From the NCBI GenBank assembly GCA_039808845.1, contig JBDHTS010000001.1, positions 1 to 49,993 on the forward strand: DNA of 49,993 nucleotides, written 5' to 3'. Shown here piece after piece: positions 6,885 through 42,763 of this stretch; position 1 is the first letter of the stretch, and each line of letters begins with the position of its first letter. Under the pieces are notes generated by a model. The model ran no database searches. It was not told where the DNA came from and worked only from the letters and a program-made list of their open reading frames with translations. This DNA comes from Alphaproteobacteria bacterium (GTDB lineage: Bacteria; Pseudomonadota; Alphaproteobacteria; Micavibrionales; Micavibrionaceae). Made by a program: the position numbers and the translations under genes.

Positions 6885-6885
6885 G

Positions 6886-7810: not shown

Positions 7811-7842
7811 TTTCAAACCACCACAAATTTCAAACCACCACA
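7811..7842 (+). repeat. Perfect 15-nt direct repeat tttcaaaccaccaca x2 (period 17 nt), just upstream of the RBS of ORF 7856
   Basis: Copies at 7811-7825 and 7828-7842, followed by gaaaggaaatcttATG. This is a candidate regulator binding site. Confidence 0.6.
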
Positions 7843-7855
7843 GAAAGGAAATCTT

Positions 7856-8155: not shown

Positions 8156-8158
8156 AAG

Positions 8159-9927: not shown

Positions 9928-9940
9928 TGTTTGCATGCAA

Positions 9941-10047
9941 GCCCCTCCCTGAGGGAGGGGTTGGGGAGGGCGCGCACTCCGGGGCCTTTTAAGTTATATA
10001 CGGTTCGTGAACCCCCACCCCGGCCCTCCTCCTGAGGGGGAGGGGGT
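9941..10047 (-). repeat. REP-like ~105-nt palindromic intergenic element, copy 1 (inverted relative to copies 2 and 3)
   Basis: gcccctccctgagggaggggttggggaggg...acccccaccccggccctcctcctgagggggaggggg. Its reverse complement aligns with 19526-19629 and 35718-35825. Confidence 0.8.
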
Positions 10048-18070: not shown

Positions 18071-18186
18071 GGCGGGCTCCCTGAAAGCGGCGTCAGGATA
18101 GCATGGCCGTCCAAAGCCTGAAAATACTTGATGTTTTCCTCGATTCTCCTATAGGGTGCGGGCATGAATATTCGCGCAGACATTCC

Positions 18187-19512
18187 ATGACCTTCGAAGA
18201 ACTGGGCCTCGGGCCCGATATCCTGCGGGCGATCGCCGATTGCGGCTATACAAATCCGACCCCCATTCAGGAAAAAGCCATTCCCGTCGTGCTGATGGCG
18301 CGCGACGTCATCGGGCTTGCGCAGACGGGCACGGGCAAGACGGCAAGCTTCACGCTGCCTATGATCGAGATCCTGGCGGGCGGGCGGGCGCGGGCGCGGA
18401 TGCCGCGCTCCCTGATCCTGTCGCCTACGCGCGAACTGGCGGCGCAGATCGCCGAGAATTTCGACCTGTACGGCAAGTATCATCCATTGTCCAAGGCGCT
18501 GCTGGTCGGCGGCGAGTCCATGGGCGACCAGCAGAAGATCCTGGAGCGCGGCGTCGACGTTTTGATCGCCACGCCGGGGCGGCTGCTGGACCTGTTCGAC
18601 CGGGGCAACATCCTGCTGAACGACATCAAGATCCTGGTGATCGACGAGGCGGACCGGATGCTGGACATGGGGTTCATTCCCGACATCGAAAAGATCGTCA
18701 GCAAGATTCCGCCGATCCGCCAGACGCTTCTGTTCTCCGCCACCATGCCGCCGGAGATCCAGAAGCTGGCCGACAAGTTCCTGAGCAATCCGAAAACCAT
18801 CAAGGTCGAGCCGCCCGCGAAAGCGCCGATCGAGCAATTCCTGGTAAAGGCCGGGTCGAAGGCGAAGCGTCAGGCCCTGCGCCAGATCATCCAGCAGGAA
18901 TCGGTGAAAAACGCGTTTATCTTCTGCAACCGCAAGCGCGAAGTGGGCGAACTGGCCAAATGGCTGAAGGGTAAAGGCCTCAACGCCGCGCCCATGCACG
19001 GCGACATGGTTCAATCCGTCAGGACGCAGACCCTGAAAGATTTCAAGGAAGACCGGATTTCCCTGCTGGTGTGCAGCGATGTGGCGGCGCGCGGGCTGGA
19101 TGTCGACGCCGTCAGCCATGTGTTCAATTACGACATTCCGTTCAGCGCGGAGGATTACGTGCACCGTATCGGCCGCACGGGCCGCGCGGGCATGTCCGGG
19201 CGCGCCTGGTCCATCGCGACGGAAGACGACGCAAAGCTGGTGAAAGCGATCGAGCGGCTGACCGGCAAGGACATACCGGTCGTCAAGCTGGAGCAGGGCG
19301 AGGCTGAATCCGAGTCTCGCGAAGAAAGACTGAGGCGGGAACGCGCCGAGCGCCCGCGAAGAGACGAAACGCGCCGCGAGCGTGGAGACCGGGGTGATTC
19401 CCAGCGTCCTGCCAGGCGCGATCAGGCGCAGCGCCCCCGTCCCCCGCGCGAAGCGCCGGATGACGGACCGAATACATTCGGCGACGACGTCCCGGCGTTT
19501 CTGCGGCGGTAG
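18187..19512 (+). CDS. rhlE: DEAD-box ATP-dependent RNA helicase (RhlE-like) with Arg-rich C-terminal tail
   Basis: I prefer the ATG at 18187 (MTFEELGLGPDIL). Motifs: Q-motif PTPIQ, AQTGTGKT, PTRELA, VIDEADRM, SAT, HRIGRTGRAG. Confidence 0.9.
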   Translation: MTFEELGLGPDILRAIADCGYTNPTPIQEKAIPVVLMARDVIGLAQTGTGKTASFTLPMIEILAGGRARARMPRSLILSPTRELAAQIAENFDLYGKYHPLSKALLVGGESMGDQQKILERGVDVLIATPGRLLDLFDRGNILLNDIKILVIDEADRMLDMGFIPDIEKIVSKIPPIRQTLLFSATMPPEIQKLADKFLSNPKTIKVEPPAKAPIEQFLVKAGSKAKRQALRQIIQQESVKNAFIFCNRKREVGELAKWLKGKGLNAAPMHGDMVQSVRTQTLKDFKEDRISLLVCSDVAARGLDVDAVSHVFNYDIPFSAEDYVHRIGRTGRAGMSGRAWSIATEDDAKLVKAIERLTGKDIPVVKLEQGEAESESREERLRRERAERPRRDETRRERGDRGDSQRPARRDQAQRPRPPREAPDDGPNTFGDDVPAFLRR

Positions 19513-19525
19513 AGGCAGAAATTGA

Positions 19526-19629
19526 CCCCCTCCTCATCACGGGGAGGGCCGGGGCAGGGGGGTACGGACCGATGGTCTTAAAGCCCCTTGGCCTGTACAC
19601 CCTCCCCAACCCCTCCCTTAGGGAGGGGC
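19526..19629 (+). repeat. REP-like ~105-nt palindromic intergenic element, copy 2
   Basis: ccccctcctcatcacggggagggccggggcagggggg...caccctccccaacccctcccttagggaggggc, starting 14 nt after the rhlE stop. Confidence 0.8.
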
Positions 19630-19735
19630 TCTCTTTGGGAGAGAAGAGTTGAAGGAAATATTCATAAAATGGCTTTCGCGCCTTGACGGGGCTGCGTGGA
19701 GATTCCACAATTGCCGCGGGTTCCGGGAGTTTTTA

Positions 19736-22000: not shown

Positions 22001-23119
22001 TCACGATCCGTTCTTTTTTTCTTTCAGAGCAGGCGAACCGGAGAGCGTGATCGCTTTCTTGTCTTTTTTGTTCGATGCAGTCAAGACCCGAGACGGGGAT
22101 GCCATTTCGCCTTTCAGACTGAAGATAAAGCTGTTGTAGTTTTTTCCATGCGTGGCCTTACGGACAGTTTCGATGTCTTTATCAGACAGCGCAATATTTT
22201 TAAAAACAGCGGCAGCCGGTCTCGTTTCATTCAGATAGGCGCGGAGCGCGTCCAGAGTGGGCGCGCGGCTGGAGGCATTCACCAGAAAACGGCCATCCCG
22301 GCGCTGGGCCTTCAGAGAAAGAGCGATGTCAGGCGTATGGGTCGCGCGTCCGCGCAAGGCGATTAAATAGGAATCGACCGGTCCGTCGAGGGTCAGCGTG
22401 CCTTCGCGCAGCGAAGCCGGGCCGGAGGAAACGAGGCCGGCGGTCAGCTTGCCCTTGAACGTCGGTCTGTTGTCCGTGCGCGGCGAACCCGAAACGATGT
22501 CAAGCGTGCCCGACGAGCGCGCGATATCCAGCGCGTCGGTGCGGACGCGAAACGCGCCGATTTCACCTTTCGCGAGCCAGCTGCCGTCGCGCTTCCAGTC
22601 GGTGGACCAGCGCGTATCGAAGGTCAGCTGGTTCTGGTTGCCGTAGACGGCGGCATCGATGTGGCGTCCCGCAGTGCTTTCAACCATCTGCATCCTGGAC
22701 TCGATACGGATGGAGCCGGCGTCCGTCATAAGGTCGATGCGCCCGTATTCGAGAATCAGGGTTTTCACCCAGCCCGGAAAGCGGAGGGGCTGGCCGTTCC
22801 AGCCATCGACCGTCAGGCCTTCCGGACCCAGGTCGCCTGTCAGGAGGACATCCTTGAGAACCACGGCATAGGGCGGAAGCGGACTGATGGGGATGCGGAG
22901 GCTGCCGATCGTGCTGAAGCCATCGGGGTCGAGCTTGATGTCAAGGAATTCAGCGCCGGACAGGCCTATTCTGGTTTTACCGATGGAGGATACCTGAAAT
23001 CCCTGCGCCGCCATCATGCGCTTCATCTGATAGACGGACCAGTAGGGCACCGCGAACCATCCAGCCACGGCGATCAGGGCCAGTGCGCAAAAAAACCAGG
23101 GGCGCGACAGGAAGCGCAT
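22001..23119 (-). CDS. N-terminally anchored hypothetical protein (372 aa)
   Basis: A single N-terminal TM helix (PWFFCALALIAVAGWFAVPYW) precedes a Thr/Gly/Asp-rich, beta-looking body. It lies directly downstream of parE (5-nt gap). I am not confident of any family assignment. Confidence 0.6.
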   Translation of the reverse strand: MRFLSRPWFFCALALIAVAGWFAVPYWSVYQMKRMMAAQGFQVSSIGKTRIGLSGAEFLDIKLDPDGFSTIGSLRIPISPLPPYAVVLKDVLLTGDLGPEGLTVDGWNGQPLRFPGWVKTLILEYGRIDLMTDAGSIRIESRMQMVESTAGRHIDAAVYGNQNQLTFDTRWSTDWKRDGSWLAKGEIGAFRVRTDALDIARSSGTLDIVSGSPRTDNRPTFKGKLTAGLVSSGPASLREGTLTLDGPVDSYLIALRGRATHTPDIALSLKAQRRDGRFLVNASSRAPTLDALRAYLNETRPAAAVFKNIALSDKDIETVRKATHGKNYNSFIFSLKGEMASPSRVLTASNKKDKKAITLSGSPALKEKKNGS

Positions 23120-26870: not shown

Positions 26871-28304
26871 TTACGACGAGTAGTACATATAGAATTCGAT
26901 CGGATGCGGACGGGTTTCGAACATCTCTATCTCTTCCATCTTCAGGTCGAAATAGCCCTCGATCATGTCGGTCGTGAACACGCCGCCCTTCAGCAGGAAT
27001 TCGTGATCCCGGCGCAGGGACTCGACCGCTTCGCGCAGCGAACCGCAGACGGTCGGGACTTTTTCCAGCTCTTCGGGCGGCAGTTCGTAAAGGTTTTTAT
27101 CCATTGCCTCGCCTGGATCGGTCTTGTTCTGGATACCGTCCAGACCGGCCATCAGCATTGCGCTGTAGGCCAGGTAGGGGTTCGCCAGCGGATCGGGGAA
27201 GCGCACTTCGACGCGTTTCGCCTTGGGCGACGATGTGAACGGAATCCGGCAGGAAGCCGAGCGGTTCCGTGACGAATACGCCAGCAGAACGGGTGCTTCG
27301 TAGCCAGGCACCAGGCGCTTGTAGCTGTTGGTCGTCGGGTTCGTGAAGGCGTTCAGGGCGCGCGCGTGCCTGATGATGCCGCCGATATACCACAGGCATT
27401 CCTGGGAAAGGCCGGCATATTTGTCGCCCGCGAAGAGGGGTTTGCCGCCACGCCATAACGACTGGTGCACGTGCATGCCCGAGCCGTTGTCGCCATAGAT
27501 CGGTTTTGGCATGAAGGTCGCGGTCTTGCCATAGGCATGGGCAACGTTCAAAACCACATATTTGTAGAGCTGCATGTTGTCGGCGCAGTTGACGAGGGTG
27601 GAGAACTTGATCCCCAGCTCATGCTGGCTGGCGGCGACTTCATGATGATGTTTCTCGACCGGCACGCCCATCGCGCGCATGACCGTCACCATCTCGCCGC
27701 GCAGGTCGAACCCGCTGTCGACCGGCGTTTCGGGGAAATAACCGCCCTTCACGCGCGGGCGGTGGCCCATGTTGCCGTTTTCGTATTCCTTGCCGCTGTT
27801 GTACGGACCTTCTTCGCTATCGATGCGGACACCGATGTGATGGCTGTCGGAATGGATGCGGATGTCGTCGAAGACGAAGAATTCGGCTTCGGGGCCGAAA
27901 TAGGCCGTATCCGCGATCCCCGTCGTCTGAAGATAGTTTTCCGCCGCCTTGGCGATGGAACGGGGATCCCGGTTGTAAGGCTTGCCGCTGACCGGATCCA
28001 GAATATCGCACATGATTTCGAGCGTGGACTGAACGGCGAACGGATCCATGGCGATGCGCCCGGCGTCGGGCAAAAGCTGCATGTCGGATTCATTGATGGC
28101 CTTCCAGCCGGCGATGGAGGAAGCATCGAACATCAGGCCGTCTTTCAACGTGCCTTCGTCAAGCATGTCCATATGGAAAGTAACATGATGACGCTTGCCG
28201 CGGGGATCGGTAAATTTGCAATTGATATAATCGATTTCCCTGTCCCTGCAGATTTTCAGGACATCGGCGTAAGTCTTGGCTTTCAACAGATTGGAGTCCG
28301 ACAT
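26871..28304 (-). CDS. glnA: Glutamine synthetase type I
   Basis: I prefer the start at CAT 28302-28304 ([10 protein letters not shown]...). Supporting segments: [70 protein letters not shown], and the adenylylation-site region ...[10 protein letters not shown]. Confidence 0.95.
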
Positions 28305-28476
28305 ATATAACCTTCCGGGTTTTGCAGTGCACCTATGTGAAAAGTGCAGATCAGTTATGAAGACAGCGCGAAAATAGCACCGTTTCGGAAACCGGACAAT
28401 ATGACGGCGGAAATTTTTTAATCCCATGAAACCCTTGACCGTCCGCCGATCCGGGGTTTAAAAGAATTTTCCACAT

Positions 28477-28553
28477 GGCGACCGTAGCTCAGCTGGTAGA
28501 GCACTCGGTTGTGGTCCGAGTTGTCGCGGGTTCAAGCCCCGTCGGTCGCCCCA
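28477..28553 (+). tRNA. tRNA-His (anticodon GTG) with G-1, CCA encoded
   Basis: ggcgaccgtagctcagctggtagagcactcggTTGTGGTccgag...ggttcaagccccgtcggtcgccCCA. The extra 5' G pairs with the discriminator C, as is typical of tRNA-His. Confidence 0.92.
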
Positions 28554-28767
28554 CCCTGCTTCGCTAAAGCTTCGCAGGGCGGAGGGGAGGTACACGTTCG
28601 CCCGGAGACGGTTCTGGCCATGATTTTTCTTCGAAAACTATTTTCTTCAGAGTCGCTGGCTTCCAAAGATAGAGTTGTTATAGACGGTGGTTTTGCCGGA
28701 GCGTTTGCGTTTCCGCTAGAACGGACGAAAAAGCCCGGGACTGATTCCAGGAAGCCAAGAGAAAAGC

Positions 28768-29625
28768 ATGTCCCTCCCAAGGGCAATGCAAATGACTATA
28801 CCCTATAACAGTCCCTCGCTTTGGCGGGGCGTTCTGCCATGGCCGCCGCAAGGTGAATTTCATAAATATGACAGAGGGCAGGTTGTTGTCGCTGGCGGCA
28901 CGGTGATGACAGGTGCGGCTCGTCTGGCCGCACAGGCCGCGATGAGGATCGGGGCCGGAATCTGCATTGTCGCGGCTCAGCCTTCCATTCTTCCGATTTA
29001 TCAAGCCAGCCTGATTCATGTCATTTCAAAGGCTGTCAAGGACTTATCTGAAATTATCCACTTAATAAACGATACATACCGTAACATAATTGTGATTGGG
29101 CCTGGAATAGGGCAAAATGACGCTCAGATGCTGCGTCAGCATATTCTAAGTCTTTTAAACACAAAGATTCCTGTGGTTCTGGACGCCGATGCGATTACAG
29201 CGTTCCAAGAGAGTCCTAAAGAGCTGTTTTCGGCGCTTCATAAAGATTGTGTTCTGACGCCGCATGCGGGGGAATTTATCCGTCTTTTTCCCGATATGGG
29301 AAAAGAGGCGCCCCCTCACGAAAAGGCATTGTCGGCGGCCAAGATATGCGGCTGTACCGTTCTTCTGAAAGGCCAGGAAACGGCGATAGCATTTTCCGAA
29401 AAAATCGTGATCAACACGCATGCCACGCCCTGGCTGGCGACGGCGGGAGCGGGGGATGTGCTGGCCGGGATGACCGCAGGGCTGATGGCGCAGGGGATGG
29501 CAGGATTCGATGCCGCCTGCGCCGCAGCATGGCTGCATGGCGAGGCCGGCCTGCGGTTCGGGCCGGGGCTGGTGGCGCCCGACCTTGTCGATATTCTGCC
29601 TGAAATCATGCGGGATTTCGCTTGA
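28768..29625 (+). CDS. nnrD: ADP-dependent NAD(P)H-hydrate dehydratase (YjeF C-terminal type)
   Basis: 285 aa: HKYDRGQVVVAGGTVMTGAARLAAQAAMRIGAG, VLDADA, LTPHAGEF, TAGAGDVLAGMTAGLMAQG. Confidence 0.85.
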   Translation: MSLPRAMQMTIPYNSPSLWRGVLPWPPQGEFHKYDRGQVVVAGGTVMTGAARLAAQAAMRIGAGICIVAAQPSILPIYQASLIHVISKAVKDLSEIIHLINDTYRNIIVIGPGIGQNDAQMLRQHILSLLNTKIPVVLDADAITAFQESPKELFSALHKDCVLTPHAGEFIRLFPDMGKEAPPHEKALSAAKICGCTVLLKGQETAIAFSEKIVINTHATPWLATAGAGDVLAGMTAGLMAQGMAGFDAACAAAWLHGEAGLRFGPGLVAPDLVDILPEIMRDFA

Positions 29626-29666
29626 ACTCCTATCGGTTTTCTGGTTTCTCATAGGGCCGGAACATT

Positions 29667-29751
29667 GCGGATGTGGCGGAACTGGCAGACGCACCAGATT
29701 TAGGTTCTGGCGGGGCAACCCGTGGGGGTTCGAGTCCCTTCATCCGCACCA
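29667..29751 (+). tRNA. tRNA-Leu (anticodon TAG), long variable arm, CCA encoded
   Basis: Acceptor stem gcggatg/catccgc, anticodon arm ccaga-TTTAGGT-tctgg, variable arm gcggggcaacccgtg; 85 nt. Confidence 0.92.
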
Positions 29752-29785
29752 GCCTCCGCCCTGCCGGGCTTCGGCTCGGCAGGCC
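29752..29785 (+). repeat. Conserved tRNA-trailer hairpin with UUCG tetraloop, copy 1
   Basis: gcctccgccctgccgggcTTCGgctcggcaggcc has a 10-bp stem (CCUGCCGGGC/GCUCGGCAGG). A near-identical copy follows tRNA-Val(CAC) at 41073-41105. Confidence 0.7.
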
Positions 29786-29846
29786 ATATATGGGTTCATT
29801 GAACCGTTTTAGACACGATTTTGAAAAGAAAAGAGACGAACAAACG

Positions 29847-31277
29847 ATGCAAGTCAAGGAACTGAAAAGCGAAGGTCTGGTCCGCGAACTGGAAGTGGTG
29901 CTGCCCGCCAATGAGATCGGGCGCCGCGTGGACGAACGCCTTAAAGATTATGCGAAGAGCGCCAGAATGCCCGGTTTCCGCCCCGGCAAGGTGCCCGCTC
30001 AGGTTTTGAAGCAGCGTTATGGCCGCGCCGTTCTGGGCGAGGTTCTGGAGTCCGCCGTGAACGACACGACGCAGAAGGTGCTGCAGGACAAGGGCCTGCG
30101 CCCGGCGATCCAGCCGAAAATCGAAGTGAAGGAATTCGACGAGGGCAAGGATCTGAAATACACGATGGAAGTCGAACTGCTTCCCGAATTCGAGGTCACG
30201 GATCTTAAATCCCTTAAATTGACGAAGCCGGTCGTCAAAGCCGATGCGGCGGCCGTCGGCGAAGCGCTGGAGCGCATCGCCAAGAACAACCGCGACACCA
30301 AAAAGATCGAGACCGGGCGCGCTTCCAAAAAGGGCGATGTCATCCTGATGGATTTTCATGGCCGGACGAAGGCAGACAACAAGCCGCACCCCGGCATGCA
30401 TGCGCACGGCCACAAGCTGGAACTTGGCAGCGGCCAGTTCATTCCCGGCTTCGAGGACCAGCTGACCGGCAGGAAGGCGGGCGAGAAGGTCGAGGTTCAT
30501 GTAACCTTCCCCGAAGTCTACCATTCCGAGGAACTCGCGGGCCAGGATGCGATCTTCGACGTCGATATTCATGAGATCCACGAACCGGCGGACGCCGCGA
30601 TCGACGACGATTTCGCCAAGAAGCTGGGCTTTGACGACCTGACGGCGCTGAAAGGCGCGGTCGAGAAGCAGATGCAGTCGGAATACGACCAGCAGAGCCG
30701 CATGAAACTGAAGCGCAGCCTGCTGGACGCGCTGGACGACGCGCACAGCTTCGCCGTGCCGCAGGGCATGCTGGACCTCGAATTCCAGAACATCCAGCAG
30801 CAGATCCGGCTTGAGCGCCAGAATGAAGTGAAGGACGGCAAGCTGGACCTGACCGATGAGGAGATGGAAGAGCTTCGCGCGATTGCCGAGCGCCGCGTGC
30901 GTCTTGGCCTGGTCCTCTCGGAAATCGGCCGCCAGAACAATATCCAGATCACGGACCAGGAATTGCAGCGCGCGGTGATCGCCGAGGCGCAACGCTATCC
31001 CGGCCAGGAAGCGGTGGTGTTCGATTACTACCGCAAGAACCGCCAGGCGCTCGACGCCCTGCGCGCGCCGGTGTTCGAGGACAAGATGGTCGATTTCATC
31101 AGCCAGCTGGCCACGATCGAGGAAAAGCCGGTCTCTGTTGAAGAACTGACCGCAGAAGAGGATGAAGAATCCTATCTGGAACGGAAGAAGGGCGGCAAAA
31201 AAGGCAAGGCAAAATCCGCCGCAGCCGATGAAGGCAAAAAAGCCTCAGGCGCGAAAAAAGCTTCCAAAAAGGAATAA
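29847..31277 (+). CDS. tig: Trigger factor
   Basis: I prefer the ATG at 29847 (MQVKELKSEGLVRELEVVLP); the listed ORF start at 29673 would overlap tRNA-Leu. Supporting segments are GFRPGKVP, an FKBP-like middle part (GDVILMDFHG...FIPGFEDQL) and a Lys-rich tail. Confidence 0.95.
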   Translation: MQVKELKSEGLVRELEVVLPANEIGRRVDERLKDYAKSARMPGFRPGKVPAQVLKQRYGRAVLGEVLESAVNDTTQKVLQDKGLRPAIQPKIEVKEFDEGKDLKYTMEVELLPEFEVTDLKSLKLTKPVVKADAAAVGEALERIAKNNRDTKKIETGRASKKGDVILMDFHGRTKADNKPHPGMHAHGHKLELGSGQFIPGFEDQLTGRKAGEKVEVHVTFPEVYHSEELAGQDAIFDVDIHEIHEPADAAIDDDFAKKLGFDDLTALKGAVEKQMQSEYDQQSRMKLKRSLLDALDDAHSFAVPQGMLDLEFQNIQQQIRLERQNEVKDGKLDLTDEEMEELRAIAERRVRLGLVLSEIGRQNNIQITDQELQRAVIAEAQRYPGQEAVVFDYYRKNRQALDALRAPVFEDKMVDFISQLATIEEKPVSVEELTAEEDEESYLERKKGGKKGKAKSAAADEGKKASGAKKASKKE

Positions 31278-31394
31278 TCAACCGGCCTTCGGACAAACCG
31301 TCTCTTGGGATGTGGTTTGCCTGGGTCGATGGTAGTGTGCCGGTTTGAAAGATGCGACATGCCCGCGCTCAATCCGTTTTCCTCTTCCTGTGTG

Positions 31395-31504
31395 GCGGGA
31401 GGGGGGAGCCAGAGGGGGGAGGGCTGCCTTGAAAATCGGTAAAGATTCAGAGATTTAAGAAAGCCCTCCCTCCTTAATCATCCCTCCCGAAGACGGGAGG
31501 GATG
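31395..31504. repeat. Cluster of G/C-rich palindromic sequences downstream of tig, a degenerate relative of the REP-like family
   Basis: ggcgggaggggggagccagaggggggagggctgcc ... agccctccctcc, then a perfect 11-bp hairpin catccctcccg-aaga-cgggagggatg (31479-31504). Confidence 0.5.
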
Positions 31505-31561
31505 AGATAAAAAAGATCCGCGAGCATAGATCCGCATTCAAAACGATCCACGACCCAATCG

Positions 31562-32326
31562 GTGCAAAGATTGCTCGCCTGGCAAGATTGGTGTATTTTC
31601 ATATTGATGAAATTGAGGATACCGCAGGATCAGCTGGAATTTTATCCAGCCCCATTATCATGTCGGCAGACATTTAATGGCAGAAGCGACCTGCTTTCAA
31701 ATTTCAACTGCCTGAATTATGCCCTCGATTATTGGGAGCATGCCTGGGCCAGGCCAGACACATTTTCAGCCCGGATTGGCTATGAACGAAGTTTGGCCAG
31801 CACCTATCGCAAAGGCGGTGATCCGGAATGGGCATTGCGCAATCCCCATCGCCGCCATTTGACGATTGACTTCAAGAAGCATGTCACAGAACACTGGAAA
31901 GACGTTATTGATTTCACTGACGATAAAGTTCTGGATCCGTTTTTTCGCGATTGTGCAGGCGCTGGTCTTATCCCTGTAAAGCGGCCGGTCACGGCAGGGG
32001 GATACAGGCTGATCGCGCACATTCAGGACAAGTATTTATTAAAACGCCATGAGGAAACCCTGGGGATGCAGGGTAAAGACGCGCACTGGATCCGGCTCGA
32101 CAGGGATGGATATTGGACCGAGAAGTTCGGGGATGGAGATATACAGGCGTTTAAATCGGGCGCAGGCCAAAATGTCATCCTGCCCCATATAGAACTGGCT
32201 CCGGATCGTGACGATCAAAAGTATATTTTCGTTCAATATTATCTTGCGCCGGTTGATATTCATCACCGGAAACCGTCCGTTCTTCCTTTTGCAAAACGCC
32301 CCATCGTTCTTGAGCTTTGTGACTAG
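31562..32326 (+). CDS. Orphan protein, candidate papain-fold Cys-His hydrolase (254 aa; alternative ATG at 31607)
   Basis: Low-GC ORF with no signal peptide and no clear SD. SNFNCLNYALDYW (Cys50) and GKDAHWIRLDRDGYWTEKFGDG (His175) resemble the papain-like CGSCWAF and HAV...YWxxKNSWG blocks. This rests on motif resemblance only. Confidence 0.5.
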   Translation: MQRLLAWQDWCIFILMKLRIPQDQLEFYPAPLSCRQTFNGRSDLLSNFNCLNYALDYWEHAWARPDTFSARIGYERSLASTYRKGGDPEWALRNPHRRHLTIDFKKHVTEHWKDVIDFTDDKVLDPFFRDCAGAGLIPVKRPVTAGGYRLIAHIQDKYLLKRHEETLGMQGKDAHWIRLDRDGYWTEKFGDGDIQAFKSGAGQNVILPHIELAPDRDDQKYIFVQYYLAPVDIHHRKPSVLPFAKRPIVLELCD

Positions 32327-32334
32327 GACAGACC

Positions 32335-32563
32335 CTTGATGCGTTTCACGCCCGTCTTCGAAGACAAGATGGTTGATTTCATCAGCCAGCTGGCCGTAAT
32401 CGAGAAAAGCCCGTGACGGTCGAGGATCTGGCCGCCGAAGAGGATGAAGAGTCCTATCTGGAACGGAAGAAGGGTGGCAAATCTAAGGAAAAAACCACGA
32501 AATCAAAGAATAAAACCGAAAACCCATCAAAAAAGGCCGATTCCAAAGCTGCTAAAAAATAAA
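32335..32563 (+). pseudogene. Orphan duplicated 3' end of tig (last ~70 codons) carrying a 1-nt frameshift
   Basis: It aligns with tig at 31050-31277 at roughly 85% identity: ...gtcttcgaagacaagatggttgatttcatcagccagctggcc...gaagaggatgaagagtcctatctggaacggaagaagggtggcaaa.... A 1-nt deletion after atcgag creates a TGA. It has its own Lys-rich tail and TAA at 32561-32563. Confidence 0.8.
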
Positions 32564-32635
32564 AATTGACTCCAGCCATGGATTAACATTACCTTAATTT
32601 GAATGACAATATGAAAATTATAAAGAGGAACAGAA

Positions 32636-33226
32636 ATGGTTGCAGAAAAAATTAGAAATGCACTCACCGGCGCGGTTCTGGCTGGAGGAGTGGCGGTAAC
32701 GCCTGTCGTTGATGCCCGTGCTGAGTCTGTGAATCCTACGGGGAATATTTTAAAAGATACGTTGTCTGTAGTTCCTGCCGCTCTTCAAAACGCGGCCGAC
32801 CTCGTATGCGGACCGGGAGGTTATCCCGATCCCAAGGCGGTTGATTTGTTCTTAGGCGAAATAATGTGGGCGCAAAAGGAACAAGGAACGGAGGTCTCAC
32901 AAGAAGCTGGGATCTCAAGGGGCTCCTTATTGAGCGCATTCCCCGCAACTGCTTCGGCGATTGATGGTCTGAGGGCTCGTCTTGACGCGATTGTGGGGGG
33001 AGACCCTCGAATCCAAGCCCTCGAAAATCATGGCTCGCTTGATCCCAAGCGGCCTATGGATAACTGGCTCTTGGTTGATAAGGCCATGCATGCCGTATGC
33101 GACCATAGTGACGAACTCATCGGGGCTGTTCGTGAAACTATAGATGGTCTCGACACGGATAAAATTGGACATGAGCTGGGTCTGAGCAGGCCCACCGCGC
33201 CAAGACCGGCGCCCGGTGTTTCATAA
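32636..33226 (+). CDS. Secreted orphan protein (196 aa)
   Basis: Good SD (agagga) and a signal-peptide-like N-terminus (ALTGAVLAGGVAVTPVVDARA). I recognise no family. Confidence 0.6.
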   Translation: MVAEKIRNALTGAVLAGGVAVTPVVDARAESVNPTGNILKDTLSVVPAALQNAADLVCGPGGYPDPKAVDLFLGEIMWAQKEQGTEVSQEAGISRGSLLSAFPATASAIDGLRARLDAIVGGDPRIQALENHGSLDPKRPMDNWLLVDKAMHAVCDHSDELIGAVRETIDGLDTDKIGHELGLSRPTAPRPAPGVS

Positions 33227-33265
33227 CTGTGAAGTGTACGCGATTTTACAGTTTTTATTTGTGCT

Positions 33266-33355
33266 CTTAAACAAACCGTATCCCTGTGATACGGTTTGTT
33301 CGTCTTTTTATTCTGGTAAACGGAGCGAGAGCGCAGCATGTACGAATGTGGCCCA
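33266..33355 (+). repeat. Orphan duplicate of the clpP upstream hairpin/leader plus the first clpP codons
   Basis: cttaaacaaaccgtatccctgtgatacggtttgttcgtctttttattctggtaaacggagcgagagcgcagcATGTACGAAtgtggccc aligns at about 80% identity with 34971-35063. It reads MYECGP then a stop. Confidence 0.8.
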
Positions 33356-33460
33356 TAGCGGGCCCTTGAATTTCCCTGTCTATTTTCATCTTTTTGGAAA
33401 ATATTGACAAGAAAAGCATGAAAGCTTAATGTTAATTATATGTAAAAACATAGATCATTT

Positions 33461-34858
33461 ATGATTTTGATAACAGATGCTATGAGATATCTCCGTTATC
33501 CAGACGCCGAACTCTCAGGCGAGCCTCCATTATTCTTTTCCACTATTTCATCCCGGCTCGACATTCTGGGCAGGAGGCTTGATCAAGCCGAGGCAGCCAA
33601 TAGGGATTATAAAGAAGAGAACAACTCTTCCATTTCGCCGTCCGATGCAATACGGGCGGATTTTCCCATACTGGATTTTCTTGAGGATGGCGCTTATCCG
33701 GCTGTCGTTATTATAAGCACGGATGATCTTGCCGCATTCCGTGAAAATGTACCGGAGGCTGAACAAGAGGAAAATTTCAAGAGGCACCTTATAAGCAATG
33801 GTTTCAATGAAGCGGAGGCGGACAAAATCGCCAAAAGCGTTTCTGAATATATGAAAAGCATTCAGAGCGACATATCCTCCGTCACTTTGACGTCTTCGGA
33901 TATGTCAAGGCCCATCGTTATTATGAAGGAATTCTCGGATAAAGAAGATCTCGTCTTCAGGGCGACAGGAAAAAGAGGGTGGATCAACCTACCGGGGAAT
34001 ATTGAGGATTATAACAATTTTAGCCTGCTGCATGAACTTGCGCATGCCAAAAGCCCAAGGGAACGCCATGGCGAGCGTTACGCCGATCAAGATGCGGCAA
34101 AAGAATATCTGAAATTATATTTGCAGGGGAAACAGGAGAGCCCCGACGTTCCTTACGCCTTCCGCGCCTTAAGGATTTTGAAGGCGGTGGAAACTCCCTT
34201 GGGGACATTGGATGAACATCTGGTGGCATTTTTGTCCGTTCTTCCGGGCGAAAAGCCTCATGGCATAAACCCCGAAACTTTCTCCAGAGCGATTAACGAT
34301 GCAGACATGAAAATCGCCATGGAAGTCGGAAAAGACCGTATGACCGAAGACGATGCTTATATATCTGCGGTCGACAGGTTGCTGGAAAAGATGAACAGCC
34401 CGAAATTTATCGATAAATACGGATCGCTCAAAGCTGAAGTCATTGAAAAAGTCCGGGAAGCGATGGGCGCTCATGATATGAAGTCTCTAAAGGGATTTAT
34501 TGCGCTTCTTCCTGAAGAACTGCGGAGAAGCTTTCAAGAGAGCATTCCCATGTCGTATGCTCTGGAAGGTTACAGGGCGCTGTCAGAACAACCTGAATTA
34601 AGATATGCCCTTGCGAAGAAATTTCTGGACCAGAGCCGATTTGACGATCCTGCCCAGAGATATTACATTGAAAAATTCCTGGATGCCGCGCAAAGATACG
34701 CTGCCGATTATTATAAAGTTCCAGAGGAAGACCGTAAATCTCAAACGCCCTATGCCGACGGAGAAATATCGCTGGCCGGTTTAAGCGCAGAGTTGTCGGC
34801 GCAGCCGGATCACAGAATGCCAGCCCAACAGGCTCCCGTTCCGGCCTTTCCGCAGTAA
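33461..34858 (+). CDS. Orphan protein with a single HExxH motif, candidate zinc metallopeptidase (465 aa)
   Basis: Low-GC ORF with SLLHELAHAKS at aa 188-198 (HELAH = nt 34031-34045). It has no signal peptide and no obvious SD. A plausible promoter lies upstream: TTGACA 33404-33409, 17 nt, TAATGT 33427-33432. Confidence 0.6.
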   Translation: MILITDAMRYLRYPDAELSGEPPLFFSTISSRLDILGRRLDQAEAANRDYKEENNSSISPSDAIRADFPILDFLEDGAYPAVVIISTDDLAAFRENVPEAEQEENFKRHLISNGFNEAEADKIAKSVSEYMKSIQSDISSVTLTSSDMSRPIVIMKEFSDKEDLVFRATGKRGWINLPGNIEDYNNFSLLHELAHAKSPRERHGERYADQDAAKEYLKLYLQGKQESPDVPYAFRALRILKAVETPLGTLDEHLVAFLSVLPGEKPHGINPETFSRAINDADMKIAMEVGKDRMTEDDAYISAVDRLLEKMNSPKFIDKYGSLKAEVIEKVREAMGAHDMKSLKGFIALLPEELRRSFQESIPMSYALEGYRALSEQPELRYALAKKFLDQSRFDDPAQRYYIEKFLDAAQRYAADYYKVPEEDRKSQTPYADGEISLAGLSAELSAQPDHRMPAQQAPVPAFPQ

Positions 34859-34970
34859 GGCAGTCGAAAATCACCGTATAAAGTCCGGAAAAATCCGGAG
34901 ATGTCCCCGTATGATCCAAGCAAGACTGCCCGACCGGCATAGCGCGCAGAATTTGCTGGCCTGATTACCC

Positions 34971-35045
34971 CTTGAACAAACCGCATCCACGCGATACGGT
35001 TTGTGTGTCTTTGATTCCTGTAAACCGAGCAAGAGCGCAGCCTCC
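34971..35045 (+). promoter_or_regulatory. Native clpP upstream hairpin/leader (counterpart of 33266-33337)
   Basis: cttgaacaaaccgcatccacgcgatacggtttgtgtgtctttgattcctgtaaaccgagcaagagcgcagcctcc immediately precedes the clpP ATG. It contains the aaccg.atc/gatacggtt hairpin. Confidence 0.55.
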
Positions 35046-35699
35046 ATGTACGAACGCGACCCGTTAGAAGTCTATAACAATACCCTGGTTCCGATGGTCA
35101 TCGAGCAGACCAACAGGGGCGAGCGGTCTTATGACATTTATTCGCGGCTGCTGAAGGAGCGCATCATCTTCCTGACGGGCGGGGTCAACGACCATGTGTC
35201 GAGCCTGATCTGCGCACAGTTGCTGTTCCTGGAGTCGGAGAACCCGAAGAAGGATATCGCGTTTTACATCAACTCGCCGGGCGGCGTTGTGACGTCGGCG
35301 CTCGCCATGTACGACACGATGCAATACATCAAGCCCGACGTTTCCACGGTCTGCACGGGGCAGGCGGCTTCCGCCGGGTCGCTGCTGCTGACCGCCGGCG
35401 CGGCCAACAAGCGGTATTCGCTGCCGCATTCCCGGATCATGATCCACCAGCCGCATGGCGGCGCGCAGGGGCAGGCGTCCGATATCGAGATCCAGGCGCG
35501 GGAGATCCTGCGTCTTCGCGCCAAGCTGAACGAGATTTATGTCAAGCATACGGGCCAGAAGCTGAACGCCATCGAGAAAGCCATGGACCGCGACAATTTC
35601 ATGTCCGCCGAGGAAGCCAAGGCATTCGGACTGATCGATCATGTGGTCGAGGCGCGCCCGGATGCGCTGGCGCCGGCGGCTGAGCCTGAGAAGAAGTAG
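35046..35699 (+). CDS. clpP: ATP-dependent Clp protease proteolytic subunit
   Basis: I prefer the ATG at 35046 ([43 protein letters not shown]). The catalytic-Ser context is [11 protein letters not shown] and the His context is MIHQP. Confidence 0.95.
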
Positions 35700-35717
35700 G
35701 TTCTCGCCTGATTTTGA

Positions 35718-35825
35718 CTCCTTTCCCCTTAAGGGGGAGGGCCGGGGCGGGGGTTTCGGACCGTTGTTTTTTGCACTTACAGCCACACTTGTAAACCCTC
35801 CCCAACCCCTCCCTCAGGGAGGGGC
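35718..35825 (+). repeat. REP-like ~105-nt palindromic intergenic element, copy 3
   Basis: ctcctttccccttaagggggagggccggggcgggggt...aaccctccccaacccctccctcagggaggggc, starting 19 nt after the clpP stop. Confidence 0.8.
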
Positions 35826-36097
35826 TTCAGAGCGGCGCGTGCCGCAACAATAAGCGCGTTGGAGAGAAAGCTCTATTCCTGAATTGCTGAGCGGGCATAA
35901 CATCTGGGGAATGTATATTCATAATAAAATTTAATGCTTCGTTCCTGCGTGTAAGTTACAACAGCAGGGGTTGATTTTCGGATGGTTATGGCCCACTTCT
36001 CCTTAAAGAATATGGCCAAAACCGGGCAAGAGTCTGTTAACCTGTTCCGTCGTATGGTGGAATGGGGCCCGAATACCCTGAAGATTGAGAGTGTTCC

Positions 36098-38521
36098 ATG
36101 ATCGGATTGTCTTCCTCAAACCGCGACCTGCCGCTTCCCGTTCTTCCACTTCGGGACATTGTCGTTTTTCCGCATATGATCGTTCCCCTGTTCGTCGGGC
36201 GCGAGCGGTCGGTGCGCGCGCTGGAACAAGTGGTCAATGCAGGCAAGCAGATCCTGCTGGTCACCCAGAAATCGCCGTCGCAGGACGATCCGGCGTCCGG
36301 CGACCTGTATGGCGTCGGCACGCTGGGCACGATCCTGCAGCTCCTGAAACTGCCGGACGGCACGGTCAAGGTTCTGGTCGAGGGGAACCGCCGCGTCAGC
36401 ATCAGGGAATACAGCCCGCGGCAGGAATACCTTGAAGCCGGCTATGAGGATATCAAGGACCTGACCGTCCGCAACGACGATCTGGACGCGCTGGCGCGCA
36501 CGGTGGCGACCCAGTTCGAGCAATACGTCAAGCTGAACAAGAAGATCCCGCCGGAAGTCATCGTCTCCGTCAACCAGATCGAAGAACCCGCGAAACTGTC
36601 CGACACGGTCGCGGCGCATCTGGCGCTGAAAATCGAGGACAAGCAGAAGCTGCTGGAAGCCGCCAACACGGCGGAGCGGCTGGAGCACATCTTCGGCTTC
36701 ATGGAAGGAGAAATCGGCGTCCTGCAGGTCGAGAAGCGCATCCGCAACCGCGTCAAGCGGCAGATGGAGAAGACCCAACGCGAGTATTACCTGAACGAAC
36801 AGATGAAGGCGATCCAGAAGGAACTCGGCGACGGCGAGAACGCGCTCGACGAGATGGAGGAACTCGCCAAGAAGATCGCCGAGACCGGCCTGTCCAAGGA
36901 GGCGAGGGAAAAAGCCGACCATGAACTGAAGAAACTGAAGCAGATGAGCCCGATGTCGGCGGAAGCGACTGTCGTGCGGAATTATCTGGACTGGATCCTG
37001 TCGCTGCCGTGGGCGAAGCGCACGCGCGTCAAAAAGGATATCAAGGCGGCGAAAAAGATTCTCGACCAGGACCATTTCGGACTGGAAAAGGTGAAAGAGC
37101 GCATTCTTGAATACCTGGCCGTGCAGCAGCGGACGAAGAAGATCAAGGGGCCGATCCTGTGCCTCGTCGGCCCGCCCGGCGTCGGCAAGACGTCGCTGGG
37201 ACAGTCCATCGCGAAGGCGACCAACCGCAATTTCGTGCGCATGTCTTTGGGCGGCGTGCGCGACGAAAGCGAGATCCGCGGCCACCGCCGGACCTATATC
37301 GGCGCGCTGCCGGGCAAGGTCATCCAGGGCATGAAGAAGGCCAGTTCCGGCAACCCCTTGTTCCTGTTGGACGAGGTGGACAAGCTGGGGAACGACTGGC
37401 GCGGCGACCCGAGCGCCGCGCTGCTGGAAGTGCTCGATCCCGAACAGAACGGCACGTTCAACGACCACTATCTCGAACTGGACTATGACCTGTCGGACGT
37501 GCTGTTCATCTGCACGGCCAACACGACGGCGACCCTTCCGCGGCCCTTGCTGGATCGTATGGAGATCATCCGCGTGTCAGGCTATACCGAGGACGAGAAG
37601 CTGGAGATCGTGAAACGCCACCTGCTGCGCAAGCAGACGGAGGCGGCGGGCCTGAAAAGAGGCGAGTTCGGCATCAACGACGCCGCCGTGCGCGACCTGA
37701 TCCGTTATTACACCCGCGAGGCGGGCGTGCGGAACCTGGAGCGCGAGATCGCCAACCTCTGCCGCAAGGCGATCAAGGAGATCCTGATGCGGGGCCGCAA
37801 GGAAGTCCGCGTCACGCCGCGCAACCTGGAGAAATACGCAGGCGTCCGCAAGTTCCATTACGGCGCGGCGGAGGAGCAGGACAAGGTCGGCGTCGTCAAC
37901 GGCCTGGCCTATACCGAGTTCGGCGGCGACCTGCTGTCGATCGAGGCGGTGACCATGCCGGGCAAGGACGGCAAGGTCACGACCACGGGCAACCTGAAGG
38001 AAGTGATGAAGGAATCCATCGTGGTCGCCGAAATGCTGATCAAATCGCGCGCGGCGCAGTTCGGGATAAGGCACAGCGAACTGAACAAGACGTCGGTCCA
38101 CGTGCACGTTCCGGAAGGGGCGACGCCCAAGGACGGCCCCTCGGCGGGCGCGGCGATGGTGACGGCGATCGTCTCGGCCCTGACGGGCATCGAGATCCGG
38201 CGCGACGTCGCGATGACGGGCGAGATCAACCTGCGCGGCTATGTCACCGGCATCGGCGGCCTGAAGGAAAAGCTTCTGGCGGCGCTGCGCGGCGGCATCC
38301 GCACCGTGCTGATCCCGAAAGACAACGAGAAGGATCTGGCCGAAATTCCCGACAAGGTGAAGAAGGGGCTGAAGATCATTCCCGTCAACCGCATCGAAGA
38401 GGTTCTGGCCAATGCGCTCACGCGTATTCCCGATCCTGTGCGCATCGAAAAGGATACGGATATCGAGGCGATCCCCACGCAAACGGGCGATGGCGTCGCG
38501 GGCGATGTCATCAGGCACTGA
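36098..38521 (+). CDS. lon: ATP-dependent Lon protease (LonA)
   Basis: 807 aa: N-terminal LPVLPLRDIVVFPHMIVPLFVGRERS, Walker A GPPGVGKTS, Walker B LFLLDEVDK, and the protease Ser context PKDGPSAGAAMVTA. Confidence 0.97.
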   Translation: MIGLSSSNRDLPLPVLPLRDIVVFPHMIVPLFVGRERSVRALEQVVNAGKQILLVTQKSPSQDDPASGDLYGVGTLGTILQLLKLPDGTVKVLVEGNRRVSIREYSPRQEYLEAGYEDIKDLTVRNDDLDALARTVATQFEQYVKLNKKIPPEVIVSVNQIEEPAKLSDTVAAHLALKIEDKQKLLEAANTAERLEHIFGFMEGEIGVLQVEKRIRNRVKRQMEKTQREYYLNEQMKAIQKELGDGENALDEMEELAKKIAETGLSKEAREKADHELKKLKQMSPMSAEATVVRNYLDWILSLPWAKRTRVKKDIKAAKKILDQDHFGLEKVKERILEYLAVQQRTKKIKGPILCLVGPPGVGKTSLGQSIAKATNRNFVRMSLGGVRDESEIRGHRRTYIGALPGKVIQGMKKASSGNPLFLLDEVDKLGNDWRGDPSAALLEVLDPEQNGTFNDHYLELDYDLSDVLFICTANTTATLPRPLLDRMEIIRVSGYTEDEKLEIVKRHLLRKQTEAAGLKRGEFGINDAAVRDLIRYYTREAGVRNLEREIANLCRKAIKEILMRGRKEVRVTPRNLEKYAGVRKFHYGAAEEQDKVGVVNGLAYTEFGGDLLSIEAVTMPGKDGKVTTTGNLKEVMKESIVVAEMLIKSRAAQFGIRHSELNKTSVHVHVPEGATPKDGPSAGAAMVTAIVSALTGIEIRRDVAMTGEINLRGYVTGIGGLKEKLLAALRGGIRTVLIPKDNEKDLAEIPDKVKKGLKIIPVNRIEEVLANALTRIPDPVRIEKDTDIEAIPTQTGDGVAGDVIRH

Positions 38522-40307: not shown

Positions 40308-40865
40308 TTACATCCCGCCGAGTTTCAGCAGGTTGCCGGGGTTTAAATAATCGAAGATCGTTTTGCTGGATGTCTTGTGAACCGCGCCGCCGGTGACGAT
40401 CGGGGCTTCGAACAGAACGCCGTTCTGGAAGACAAGCGTCACGTTGTAATCGTAACCGTCTTCATCGGTGCGGATGCGGATCAGGGAGGCAAATCCATGC
40501 TCCTTCTCCACCTTTTTGTAATTGAAACGGTAACCGTAGAGCGATTGCAGGAAACGGCTCTGTTCGTCCTGGCCGATCTTGCCGTCACGGAATTCCACCG
40601 AGCTGCTGCCGTACAGGGAGATCAGGATCTCGTTGCGTTCCAGCCTGTCCATGTCTTTTTCCTGACGGCCCAGAACGGTAAAAACATCGGCCTGCGGCAT
40701 ACCGGGGCGCAGGCCGCGCAGGCGGTCCATCAGATCGTCGGGCGTCTTGTATATGGACCTGTTGACGGTCTCGTCGCTGCCGGGCAATGCGATGGCCCCC
40801 GCACACCCTGTCAAAAGGACAAGGCCCGCCGTCAGAATAAGGGCGGTTCGCCGCCAGCCGCTCAT
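40308..40865 (-). CDS. Lipoprotein with a SmpA/OmlA (BamE-like) segment
   Basis: I prefer the start at CAT 40863-40865, giving MSGWRRTALILTAGLVLLTGC (lipobox). GMPQADVFTVLG is BamE-like. Confidence 0.65.
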   Translation of the reverse strand: MSGWRRTALILTAGLVLLTGCAGAIALPGSDETVNRSIYKTPDDLMDRLRGLRPGMPQADVFTVLGRQEKDMDRLERNEILISLYGSSSVEFRDGKIGQDEQSRFLQSLYGYRFNYKKVEKEHGFASLIRIRTDEDGYDYNVTLVFQNGVLFEAPIVTGGAVHKTSSKTIFDYLNPGNLLKLGGM

Positions 40866-40997
40866 GTCGCGCCACACTTTATTATTATGGCAAAAATGGC
40901 TGAAAAACGCCACAAAAGCCGATGCTGCAACGCGGTTTTATAGATTGAACGGGCGGTCAAGTTATGCTTTGATCCGCCACGATCTTCAAACAGGATC

Positions 40998-41072
40998 GGG
41001 CACATAGCTCAGCGGGAGAGCACACCCTTCACACGGGTGGGGTCGCAGGTTCAATCCCTGCTGTGCCCACCA
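40998..41072 (+). tRNA. tRNA-Val (anticodon CAC), CCA encoded
   Basis: Acceptor stem gggcaca/tgtgccc, anticodon arm caccc-TTCACAC-gggtg; 75 nt. Confidence 0.92.
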
Positions 41073-41105
41073 GCCTTCGCCCTGCGGGCTTCGGCTCGGC
41101 AGGCC
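41073..41105 (+). repeat. Conserved tRNA-trailer hairpin with UUCG tetraloop, copy 2
   Basis: gccttcgccctgcgggcTTCGgctcggcaggcc differs from 29752-29785 by one substitution and a 1-nt deletion. It is followed by attttcaaaaa. Confidence 0.7.
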
Positions 41106-41174
41106 ATTTTCAAAAATGAACTTTTCCAATGCTTTCCGCGTAGGCAGGACAGATCCAACCGAAAGGAGTCTGTC

Positions 41175-41434: not shown

Positions 41435-41555
41435 TTGTCATCCCGGCGAAAGACGGGACCTATACAATGTTTAAACTTCACTAAAGGCAATAGGTTTGCG
41501 CCAGAAGAAAAAACGTAACCGTTCGCATAGGTCCCGTCTTTCGCCGGGATGACAA
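41435..41555. mobile_element. MITE-like 121-bp element with perfect 29-bp terminal inverted repeats
   Basis: ttgtcatcccggcgaaagacgggacctat (41435-41463) and its exact reverse complement ataggtcccgtctttcgccgggatgacaa (41527-41555) flank a 63-nt AT-rich core. It has no coding capacity. Confidence 0.55.
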
Positions 41556-41641
41556 TTTATAAGGATTGTAATCAGGTGCTGGAAAAGGGATGCGCCTCCG
41601 GTTAAAACGGTCTCTGGATTGTTCTGACCGGAGGCCGTAAC

Positions 41642-42763
41642 GTGATCATCGGATGCCCTAAAGAGATCAAAGCGCAGGAACATCGTGTCGGGCTGGTGCC
41701 GGCATCGGTCCGGGAACTGACGGCCCACGGGCATCAGGTTTTGATCGAGACCGGGGCAGGGGCTGGCATCAATTTCACGGACGACGATTACAAGGCAACG
41801 GGCGCGACGATCGCGGGCAGCGCCGCCGATGTGTTTGCAAAGGCCGACATGATCGTGAAGGTGAAGGAGCCGCAGCCGCAGGAATGCAAGATGCTGCGCG
41901 AAGGGCAAATCCTGTTCACCTATCTTCATCTGGCCGCCGACAGGAAACAGGCGGAAGGCCTGATGGCCTCGCGTTGCGTCGCCATCGCCTATGAGACCGT
42001 CACCGGGCCGGGGGGCAGGGGGTTGCCGCTGCTGGCGCCGATGAGTGAGATCGCGGGACGGCTGTCGGTCGTGGTCGGGTCGAATTACCTGCAGAAACAT
42101 CTGGGCGGCACGGGGCGGCTGATCAGCGGCGTGCCGGGGGTCGCGCCCGCGCGGGTGCTGGTGCTGGGCGGCGGCGTGGCGGGGTTCAATGCGGCGCGGG
42201 TGGCGGTCGGCATGGGGGCGGAAGTCACCATCCTGGAGAAGAACCACGACCGCATGCGTTTCCTCGACGATTATTTCCGGGGGCAGGCGCGAATCATCTA
42301 TTCGAGCATGGATTATATCGAGCGGAACGCGGAACGGCTGGACATCATCGTCGGCGCGGTCCTGATCCCCGGCGCGTCCGCTCCACGGATGGTCAGCCGG
42401 GCGCTGCTGAAGAAAATGGCGCCGGGCACGGTGATGGTGGACATCGCCATCGACCAGGGCGGCTGCTTCGAGACCAGCAGGCCGACCACGCATAACGATC
42501 CCGTTTATACCGTCGACAACGTCGTCCATTACTGCGTCGCCAACATGCCGGGGGCCGTGCCGCTTTCCTCAGCCCTCGCGCTGAACCACGCGGTCCTTCC
42601 CTATACTTTGGAGCTGGCGGACAAGGGGTGGAAGAAAGCGCTGCAGGACAACCCGTCCCTGCGCGAGGGGCTGAACGTCTGCGCGGGTGAGATCACCTAT
42701 TGCAGCGTGGCGGAATCCTTGAGTTTGCCGTTCAACCCCAGCCCGAAAGCCCTGGCCGCCTAA
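41642..42763 (+). CDS. ald: Alanine dehydrogenase
   Basis: 373 aa with a GTG start: [26 protein letters not shown], the NAD motif [14 protein letters not shown] and DIAIDQGG. Confidence 0.95.

Follow-up and report, generated by a model that had tools for sequence, protein, structure and literature searches.

Results

The tig-clpP interval

The DNA analysed here, in the following called the window, is a stretch of 49,993 nt from a Micavibrio-clade alphaproteobacterium (contig JBDHTS010000001.1 of assembly GCA_039808845.1). In this genome the trigger factor gene tig and the protease gene clpP are separated by an interval of 3.77 kb, which contains three compositionally foreign genes and, between them, truncated copies of the 3' end of tig and of the 5' end of clpP. 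A first-pass annotation had described the tig copy and explained it by acquisition of DNA beside tig, either through an integrative element that brought a tig 3' end with it or through capture by homology-facilitated recombination. The features of the interval are given below in their order along the window. L001 denotes the corresponding locus of the sister genome MAG_MBR_H10.102, a metagenome-assembled genome (MAG); ORF stands for open reading frame and GC3 for the GC content at third codon positions.

29847..31277, + strand: intact tig, trigger factor of 476 amino acids (aa) with a Lys-rich C-terminal tail (Pfam Trigger_N, FKBP_C and Trigger_C)
31294..31319, + strand: H1, a degenerate third tig terminator hairpin (CAAACCG...TGGTTTG), 17 nt past the tig stop, found by local alignment to hairpin H2 and by motif scan
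31390..31510, no strand assigned: cluster of G-rich palindromes with GGGAGGG / CCCTCCC arms, similar to repetitive extragenic palindromic (REP) sequences (motif count; folding z -5.8)
31607..32326, + strand: ORF254, cargo gene 1, from a small uncharacterised family (five remote homologues; GC3 0.51)
32327..32563, + strand: truncated, twice-frameshifted copy of the tig tail, the last ~77 codons, with its own Lys-rich tail and TAA (BLASTN, three-frame translation, codon-position analysis and tree)
32636..33226, + strand: ORF196, cargo gene 2, with an N-terminal signal-peptide-like segment (GC3 0.48)
33266..33358, + strand: copy of the 3' part of the spacer, with hairpin H2 (33270-33300), T-run, clpP leader and clpP codons 1-6 (BLASTN; three-way alignment with L001)
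33461..34858, + strand: ORF465, cargo gene 3, from an uncharacterised family with a conserved HExxH motif (homologues P0002 and P0003; GC3 0.49)
34971..35045, + strand: functional 3' part of the spacer, hairpin H3 (34974-35004) and clpP leader (89.5% identity to the L001 spacer)
35046..35699, + strand: intact clpP, 217 aa (Pfam CLP_protease, E 6e-85; 98% aa identity to L001)

Copies of both gene ends

The duplicated tig 3' end, 1.3 kb past the tig stop, is real and its similarity to tig is better than chance. In a pairwise BLASTN comparison positions 32349-32481 matched 31066-31199 at the tig 3' end with 115 of 134 positions identical (86%), one 1-nt gap and an E value of 2e-41. When searched against the whole window the repeat gave E values of ~2e-38 to 3e-37, and in a self-comparison it was the top-scoring repeat of the 50 kb. 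The first-pass annotation had placed the span correctly, at about 230 nt, but the ~85% identity that it gave applies to the central 134 nt alone; over the entire span (31050-31277 against 32335-32563) the identity is 73%, falling to ~50% in the 5' 25 nt and to 57% in the Lys-rich tail, which had rightly been said to differ. The longest exact runs shared by the two copies, 21-23 nt, lie inside the repeat and away from its edges. The homology sets in at ~32327-32329, at most 3 nt from the TAG stop of ORF254, where QTLDAFHA in the copy corresponds to QALDALRA in trigger factor, and the copy represents tig codons ~400-476.

The reading frame of the copy is broken twice. A premature TGA (32414-32416) arises from a 1-nt deletion at 32404, as had been proposed, but this is not the sole frameshift, a 2-nt deletion being present near 32346. 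Past the TGA the third frame is open through the Lys-rich tail to a natural-looking TAA at 32560-32562, and the tail allele of the copy is TPVFEDKMVDFISQLAVIEEKPVTVEDLAAEE...KSKEKTTKSKNK.

A Lys-rich, low-complexity C-terminal extension of ~25-35 aa was observed on trigger factor throughout the clade (window 31200-31277, L001 and other loci), with a length and sequence that differ even among close relatives.

A second, mirror-image duplication had been overlooked. Positions 34971-35062 recur at 33266-33354 with 78% identity over 93 nt (BLASTN, E 7e-18), and this repeat contains the tig terminator hairpin, the T-run, the clpP leader, and the ATG with five further clpP codons. The clpP remnant at 33338-33358 reads MYECGP and is then closed by a TAG stop. 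Hairpin H2, which belongs to this copy, was the first-listed terminator-like site of the region and has the longest stem (13 pairs). H1, immediately behind the intact tig, is identical to H2 at 21 of 28 positions, a score that was matched by 1 of 2000 shuffled sequences. In a motif scan the hairpin was found three times in the tig-clpP interval and zero times elsewhere in the 50 kb, while exactly one copy was present in 16 of 103 related loci and more than one in none of the 103.

Taken together, the tig tail copy, the mirror-image clpP duplication and the third hairpin show the interval to be composed of three truncated versions of one locus. The first unit consists of tig, H1, the REP-like cluster and ORF254; the middle one of the tig remnant, ORF196, H2, the leader and the clpP remnant (codons 1-6); and the last one of ORF465, H3, the leader and clpP. 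The two duplications and the extra hairpin also mean that the middle segment covers the entire spacer, with tig codon ~400 at one end and clpP codon 6 at the other, and that it is a truncated copy of the spacer rather than an attachment (att) site. The order of the remnants is thus tig 3' copy, cargo (ORF196), clpP 5' copy.

Cargo genes and palindromes

The three cargo genes have GC3 values of 0.48-0.51 as compared to 0.77-0.85 in tig, clpP and lon, and homologues of the cargo elsewhere are also low in GC3 relative to their neighbours and inserted between housekeeping genes. None of the three ORFs had a significant match in Pfam, NCBIfam, PHROG or PADLOC, phage, defence and recombinase families included. 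Scans of IMG/VR with all three proteins gave no match, and sequence searches of the PDB gave nothing credible. The cargo is made up of lineage-specific, compositionally foreign proteins whose function is uncharacterised.

ORF254 had been taken for an orphan that started further upstream. An exhaustive HMMER search revealed five remote homologues (E 5e-22 to 2e-4), none of which was retrieved by word-indexed search, and from their alignment the start is probably the ATG at 31607, which gives a protein of 239 aa. Its C-terminus coincides with the ends of the homologues, and the family shares a Cys motif, NC..YA, and a His motif, HW.RLD.DG.W. The two homologues whose surroundings were inspected both lie amid housekeeping genes. 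A structure model from the single sequence was useless (predicted local distance difference test score, pLDDT, 33), and a model based on six sequences was moderate (pLDDT 70.7). Foldseek found no significant match to this model in the PDB, the best being a Josephin-type clippase (E 0.24), followed by several ubiquitin-specific (USP) proteases with E >1, and for this reason a papain-like fold is a hint only. ORF254 may be a Cys/His hydrolase.

ORF196 matched only itself among 5.8 billion proteins, and its signal-peptide-like segment was read by eye from the sequence alone. ORF465 has two homologues, P0002 (58% identity) and P0003 (34%), and the HExxH motif is invariant in all three. P0002 is encoded between murC and murB in the division and cell wall (dcw) cluster of the same MAG as L001 (L081 10001-11251, GCA_044221445.1). 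Its GC3 is 0.47, compared with 0.81-0.82 in the neighbouring genes, and no duplications of the flanking target genes were seen at this murC-murB site. The family of ORF465 therefore occupies different housekeeping-gene junctions in sister genomes. HExxH proteins are also encoded in the tig-clpP spacers of L031 and L028, and a comparison with ORF465 gave no relationship.

The G-rich palindromes that the first-pass annotation had seen between the two tig copies are present at 31390-31510. The motif CCCTCCC-N-GGGAGGG has 4 occurrences in the window, where 0.01 would be expected, and the palindromes form four REP-like intergenic sites of one shared architecture, with the arms set around a spacer of ~40 nt (9940-10047, 19522-19630, 31390-31510 and 35714-35826). 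No member of the family was seen in the related loci that were examined, among them L001 and L081 from the sister MAG, and no transposase of the REP-associated (RAYT) type was seen among the window ORFs scanned.

The interval in related genomes

Related loci were collected by a scan of GTDB genomes with tig, which gave 80 loci, and by a metagenome scan with the full tig, which gave 36 loci with a best identity of 75%. The first-pass annotation had proposed to compare the interval in relatives. In L001 the tig-clpP spacer is an uninterrupted 112 nt with one hairpin, 89.5% identical to the functional spacer of the window. The spacer is shorter than 600 nt in 72 of 103 related loci, and in the other 31 it holds 0.6-5.3 kb of diverse, mostly unrelated ORFs, which makes it a recurrent site of variation and shows that strains with differing cargo at this place exist. 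A duplicated tig 3' or clpP 5' end was found in none of the 118 related loci, nor in any of the 31 with a gap above 600 nt, and DNA or protein resembling the cargo of the window was likewise absent from the tig-clpP spacer of all 118. The ORF465 family was located solely at other sites (L081 and L082).

The nearest sequence to the tig copy is the window's own tig (86%), followed by L001 (82%), and no other locus is closer. A metagenome scan with the repaired tail peptide of the copy gave no confirmed match, exact-protein look-ups returned no record for tig or ORF196, and a sliding-window comparison of tig, clpP and lon with L001 revealed no convincing mosaic breakpoint.

Two distant relatives, L068 (~8160-9130) and L070 (~8110-9075), have an additional ClpP-like gene between tig and clpP; it is divergent, codes for ~320 aa and has a long C-terminal extension.

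Origin of the tig copy

Of the 19 positions at which the copy departs from the resident tig over 45 shared codons, 14 are third codon positions (P 4e-4), and the codon differences comprise 11 synonymous and 5 non-synonymous changes. This third-position bias, together with the tail and stop of its own, is what would be expected if the copy had belonged to a working tig during much of its divergence. When the changes were polarised with L001, 12 were specific to the copy (4/1/7 by codon position, P 0.07), 5 to the resident gene and 10 to L001, those of the latter two branches being without exception at third positions. In a neighbour-joining tree with 17 outgroups the copy and the resident tig formed a group with 72% bootstrap, nested in a clade that also contains L001 (98%), and by this placement it is a tig allele of this lineage or of a very close one. 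Judged from its sequence, the copy is old, having diverged about as far as the window has from L001. The first-pass annotation had hoped that a tree would tell which of the two tails is native. The grouping with the resident gene came out of the tree, but the substitutions fit either an allele imported from a close relative and recently inactivated or an in-lineage duplicate that has been decaying neutrally for a long time.

Neighbouring genes

The gene order around the interval is tRNA-His, an nnrD-like gene, tRNA-Leu (29667-29751), tig (29847-31277), clpP (35046-35699) and lon (36098-38521). Trigger factor is 84% identical to that of L001 at the amino acid level and 55-70% identical to those of other Micavibrio-like genomes; the lon protein is 89% identical to its L001 counterpart. 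Throughout the Micavibrio clade lon comes directly after clpP, and clpX is missing between the two (window 35700-36097; loci L001-L080). A clpP-lon gap of 1.6-2.4 kb, roomy enough for clpX, was seen only in the outgroup loci L072-L075, which are labelled Rickettsiaceae, Rickettsiales, Robiginitomaculum and Caulobacterales. An Rfam scan of 28000-37000 gave two tRNAs and nothing else. Positions 29747-29787, the last bases of tRNA-Leu(tag) and the sequence downstream of it, match 41068-41107 at the 3' end of tRNA-Val(cac) over 41 nt with 95% identity, which is probably a shared tRNA trailer or terminator. Several other long ORFs of the window had no Pfam match (40308-40913, 41471-42529, 43088-45505, 22001-23119, 18067-19164 and 6688-7866), and the genome appears to be rich in uncharacterised lineage-specific proteins.

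Discussion

The premise that the duplicated tig tail is a scar of DNA acquisition beside tig is supported by the low GC3 of the cargo compared with the flanking genes and by the spacer of 112 nt in the sister genome. As to the route, homology-facilitated capture is the better fit, and the integrative element is poorly supported. We give about even chances to the reading that the tig-clpP interval preserves the traces of serial gene capture, by homology-facilitated illegitimate recombination (HFIR), at a variable site. Remnants of conserved genes (32327-32563 and 33338-33358) are found between the cargo genes, with the intact tig and clpP on the outside, and the added DNA is foreign, both of which belong to the footprint of this process.

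The mechanism we infer from the final architecture, in which three versions of one locus with differing cargo stand head to tail with truncated ends. The most economical route to it would be two rounds of HFIR. Each round would start from linear DNA of a related Micavibrio-like strain with other cargo in its spacer, which would pair by homology on one side, the likelier anchor being the highly conserved clpP-lon side (98% and 89% protein identity to L001), and the opposite end would join illegitimately inside or beside the resident locus. Each event would retain one intact tig and one intact clpP, because their loss would be selected against, and it would strand a truncated, decaying end of the previous allele between the old and the new cargo. 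The stranded ends imply that the tig tail copy would be a non-functional by-product and not an attachment site.

Several points speak against serial capture. A donor or intermediate genome was not found in genome, metagenome or protein collections, ORF196 has no homologue, and neither the cargo nor the duplications recur in the tig-clpP spacer of the 118 related loci. The junction at most 3 nt from the ORF254 stop is tidier than the usual random illegitimate join. The pattern of changes on the branch of the copy (4/1/7, P 0.07) is also compatible with neutral decay of an in-lineage duplicate, and because of this pattern and the 72% grouping with the resident tig the foreign origin of the tail is unproven. 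Finally, neither natural competence nor any other route of DNA uptake is documented for this lineage, and the paper on the M. aeruginosavorus genome mentions none.

A rival possibility is that the tig 3' end, the spacer and the clpP 5' end were duplicated or triplicated in situ, by illegitimate or template-switch events, after which cargo was inserted into the copies and the spare ends decayed. The grouping of the copy with the resident tig (72%) inside the L001 clade (98%) agrees with this, as do the two frameshifts and the 12 copy-specific changes, a number and split close to the expectation for neutral decay when the resident branch has 5 synonymous changes. The REP-like cluster beside tig, from a family at four sites in the window and in no related locus examined, also counts in its favour. 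A tandem duplication predicts a clpP 5' remnant directly before a tig 3' remnant, but the opposite order was seen, with cargo at both junctions, which speaks against a simple tandem segmental duplication. The layout would need a triplication and three separate cargo insertions and replacements exactly at the junctions, and the source of the cargo would still have to be explained. We therefore regard an origin in situ as unlikely. Site-specific integrative elements that restore the ends of their target genes, one at the tig 3' end and one at the clpP 5' end, appear more doubtful still. The copy at 32327-32563 would then be the displaced native tail (attR), the second element would have brought its own clpP leader, and the recombinases would have been lost or supplied in trans, as in cis-mobilisable (CIME-type) elements. 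Such elements classically leave direct repeats of a gene end around DNA of foreign composition, both target genes are still intact, and Micavibrio genomes are known to carry integrase-bearing islands at tRNA genes (PMC3189940). The first-pass annotation was right that a recombinase is absent: no such domain was seen in any of the 26 long window ORFs scanned, which include those of the island and 20 others, and two elements of merely ~1.0 and ~1.6 kb would both have had to lose the enzyme. The 5' boundary of the repeat (32327-32348), where a core should be identical, is its most divergent part (~50%, with a 2-nt indel), although decay could have wiped out an att core there. No duplicated tig or clpP end recurs in the 118 related loci, though many of these hold cargo at the same place, and the model would account neither for the three copies of the hairpin nor for a middle unit that resembles a complete spacer with the clpP start.

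It is very unlikely that the structure is an assembly artefact, in which spacer alleles of co-occurring related strains were concatenated into a chimeric metagenomic contig. The close relatives are all MAGs, so the window is probably from a MAG too, the spacer is strain-variable, and the structure is found on a single contig only. Against this, the junctions do not lie at shared k-mers, the exact runs of 21-23 nt sitting inside the repeat, and a frameshifted tig copy and a clpP copy stopped after six codons are unlike the functional alleles of a strain; the flanking genes are intact and there are no other anomalous repeats in the 50 kb. A transposon, insertion sequence (IS) or miniature inverted-repeat transposable element (MITE) was also considered and rejected, as no inverted repeats bracket the segments and no transposase domain was seen in the ORFs scanned, and the direct repeats of 93-230 nt are far too long for a target-site duplication. 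A further, very unlikely idea is that the conserved tig terminator hairpin is itself a recombination site for a trans-acting, hairpin-recognising enzyme of an integron-like or HUH-like kind. If this were true, the three hairpin copies would mark successive captures and the tig-clpP spacer of Micavibrio-like predators would accumulate cassettes that encode secreted predation factors of a hydrolase type.

If serial capture is the right reading, the locus is a natural example of gene gain beside essential genes without the machinery of a mobile element, and the scars that it left, a tig tail and a clpP head that are both dead, can be dated. No new mechanism is revealed by this. The tig-clpP spacer is variable in ~30% of Micavibrio-like species and the locus points to small hotspot islets in predatory bacteria, and the three foreign-looking, lineage-specific cargo genes are candidates for predation-related functions. 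For annotators the locus calls for caution, as neither a tig pseudogene nor an integrative element should be called here.

Known systems resemble the locus to different degrees. Integrative elements that restore gene 3' ends include the islands at tRNA and tmRNA genes, and the integrative and conjugative elements (ICE) and CIME at the fda 3' end in streptococci. As in these, foreign DNA lies between direct repeats of a gene 3' end next to an intact target gene; unlike in these, there is no integrase, no exact core and no recurrence in relatives, and the repeat is part of a copy of the whole spacer that includes the 5' end of the downstream gene.

Experimental demonstrations of HFIR come from Acinetobacter, S. 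pneumoniae, P. stutzeri and conjugation in E. coli (references in PMC5361080 and PMC3240628). It shares with the tig-clpP interval, as read here, a one-sided homology anchor next to conserved genes and foreign DNA at an illegitimate junction, it needs neither a recombinase nor element ends, and it leaves partial duplicates of the anchor-side locus. A typical HFIR junction has a short microhomology (3-10 nt) between donor and recipient. The difference is that the process is here read back from the final architecture, and that two mirrored remnants, of a gene 3' end and a gene 5' end, occur in one locus.

Sequential displacement that leaves shifted-back 3' ends has been attributed to HFIR in the effector/immunity arrays of the V. 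cholerae type VI secretion system (T6SS) and in Rhs loci, and orphan 3' ends of Rhs and contact-dependent inhibition (CDI) toxin loci are counted among such arrays (PMC5361080). Incoming modules push truncated older ends along in those arrays, and the result, as here, is a series of cargo separated by remnants homologous to a conserved gene. The conserved genes of our locus, however, are the housekeeping genes tig and clpP and not a polymorphic toxin, the cargo follows no recognisable effector/immunity logic, and the three units are found in one genome. Most likely the remnants in the tig-clpP interval are scars of repeated capture by recombination, a footprint of a type already described, rather than a new mobile element.

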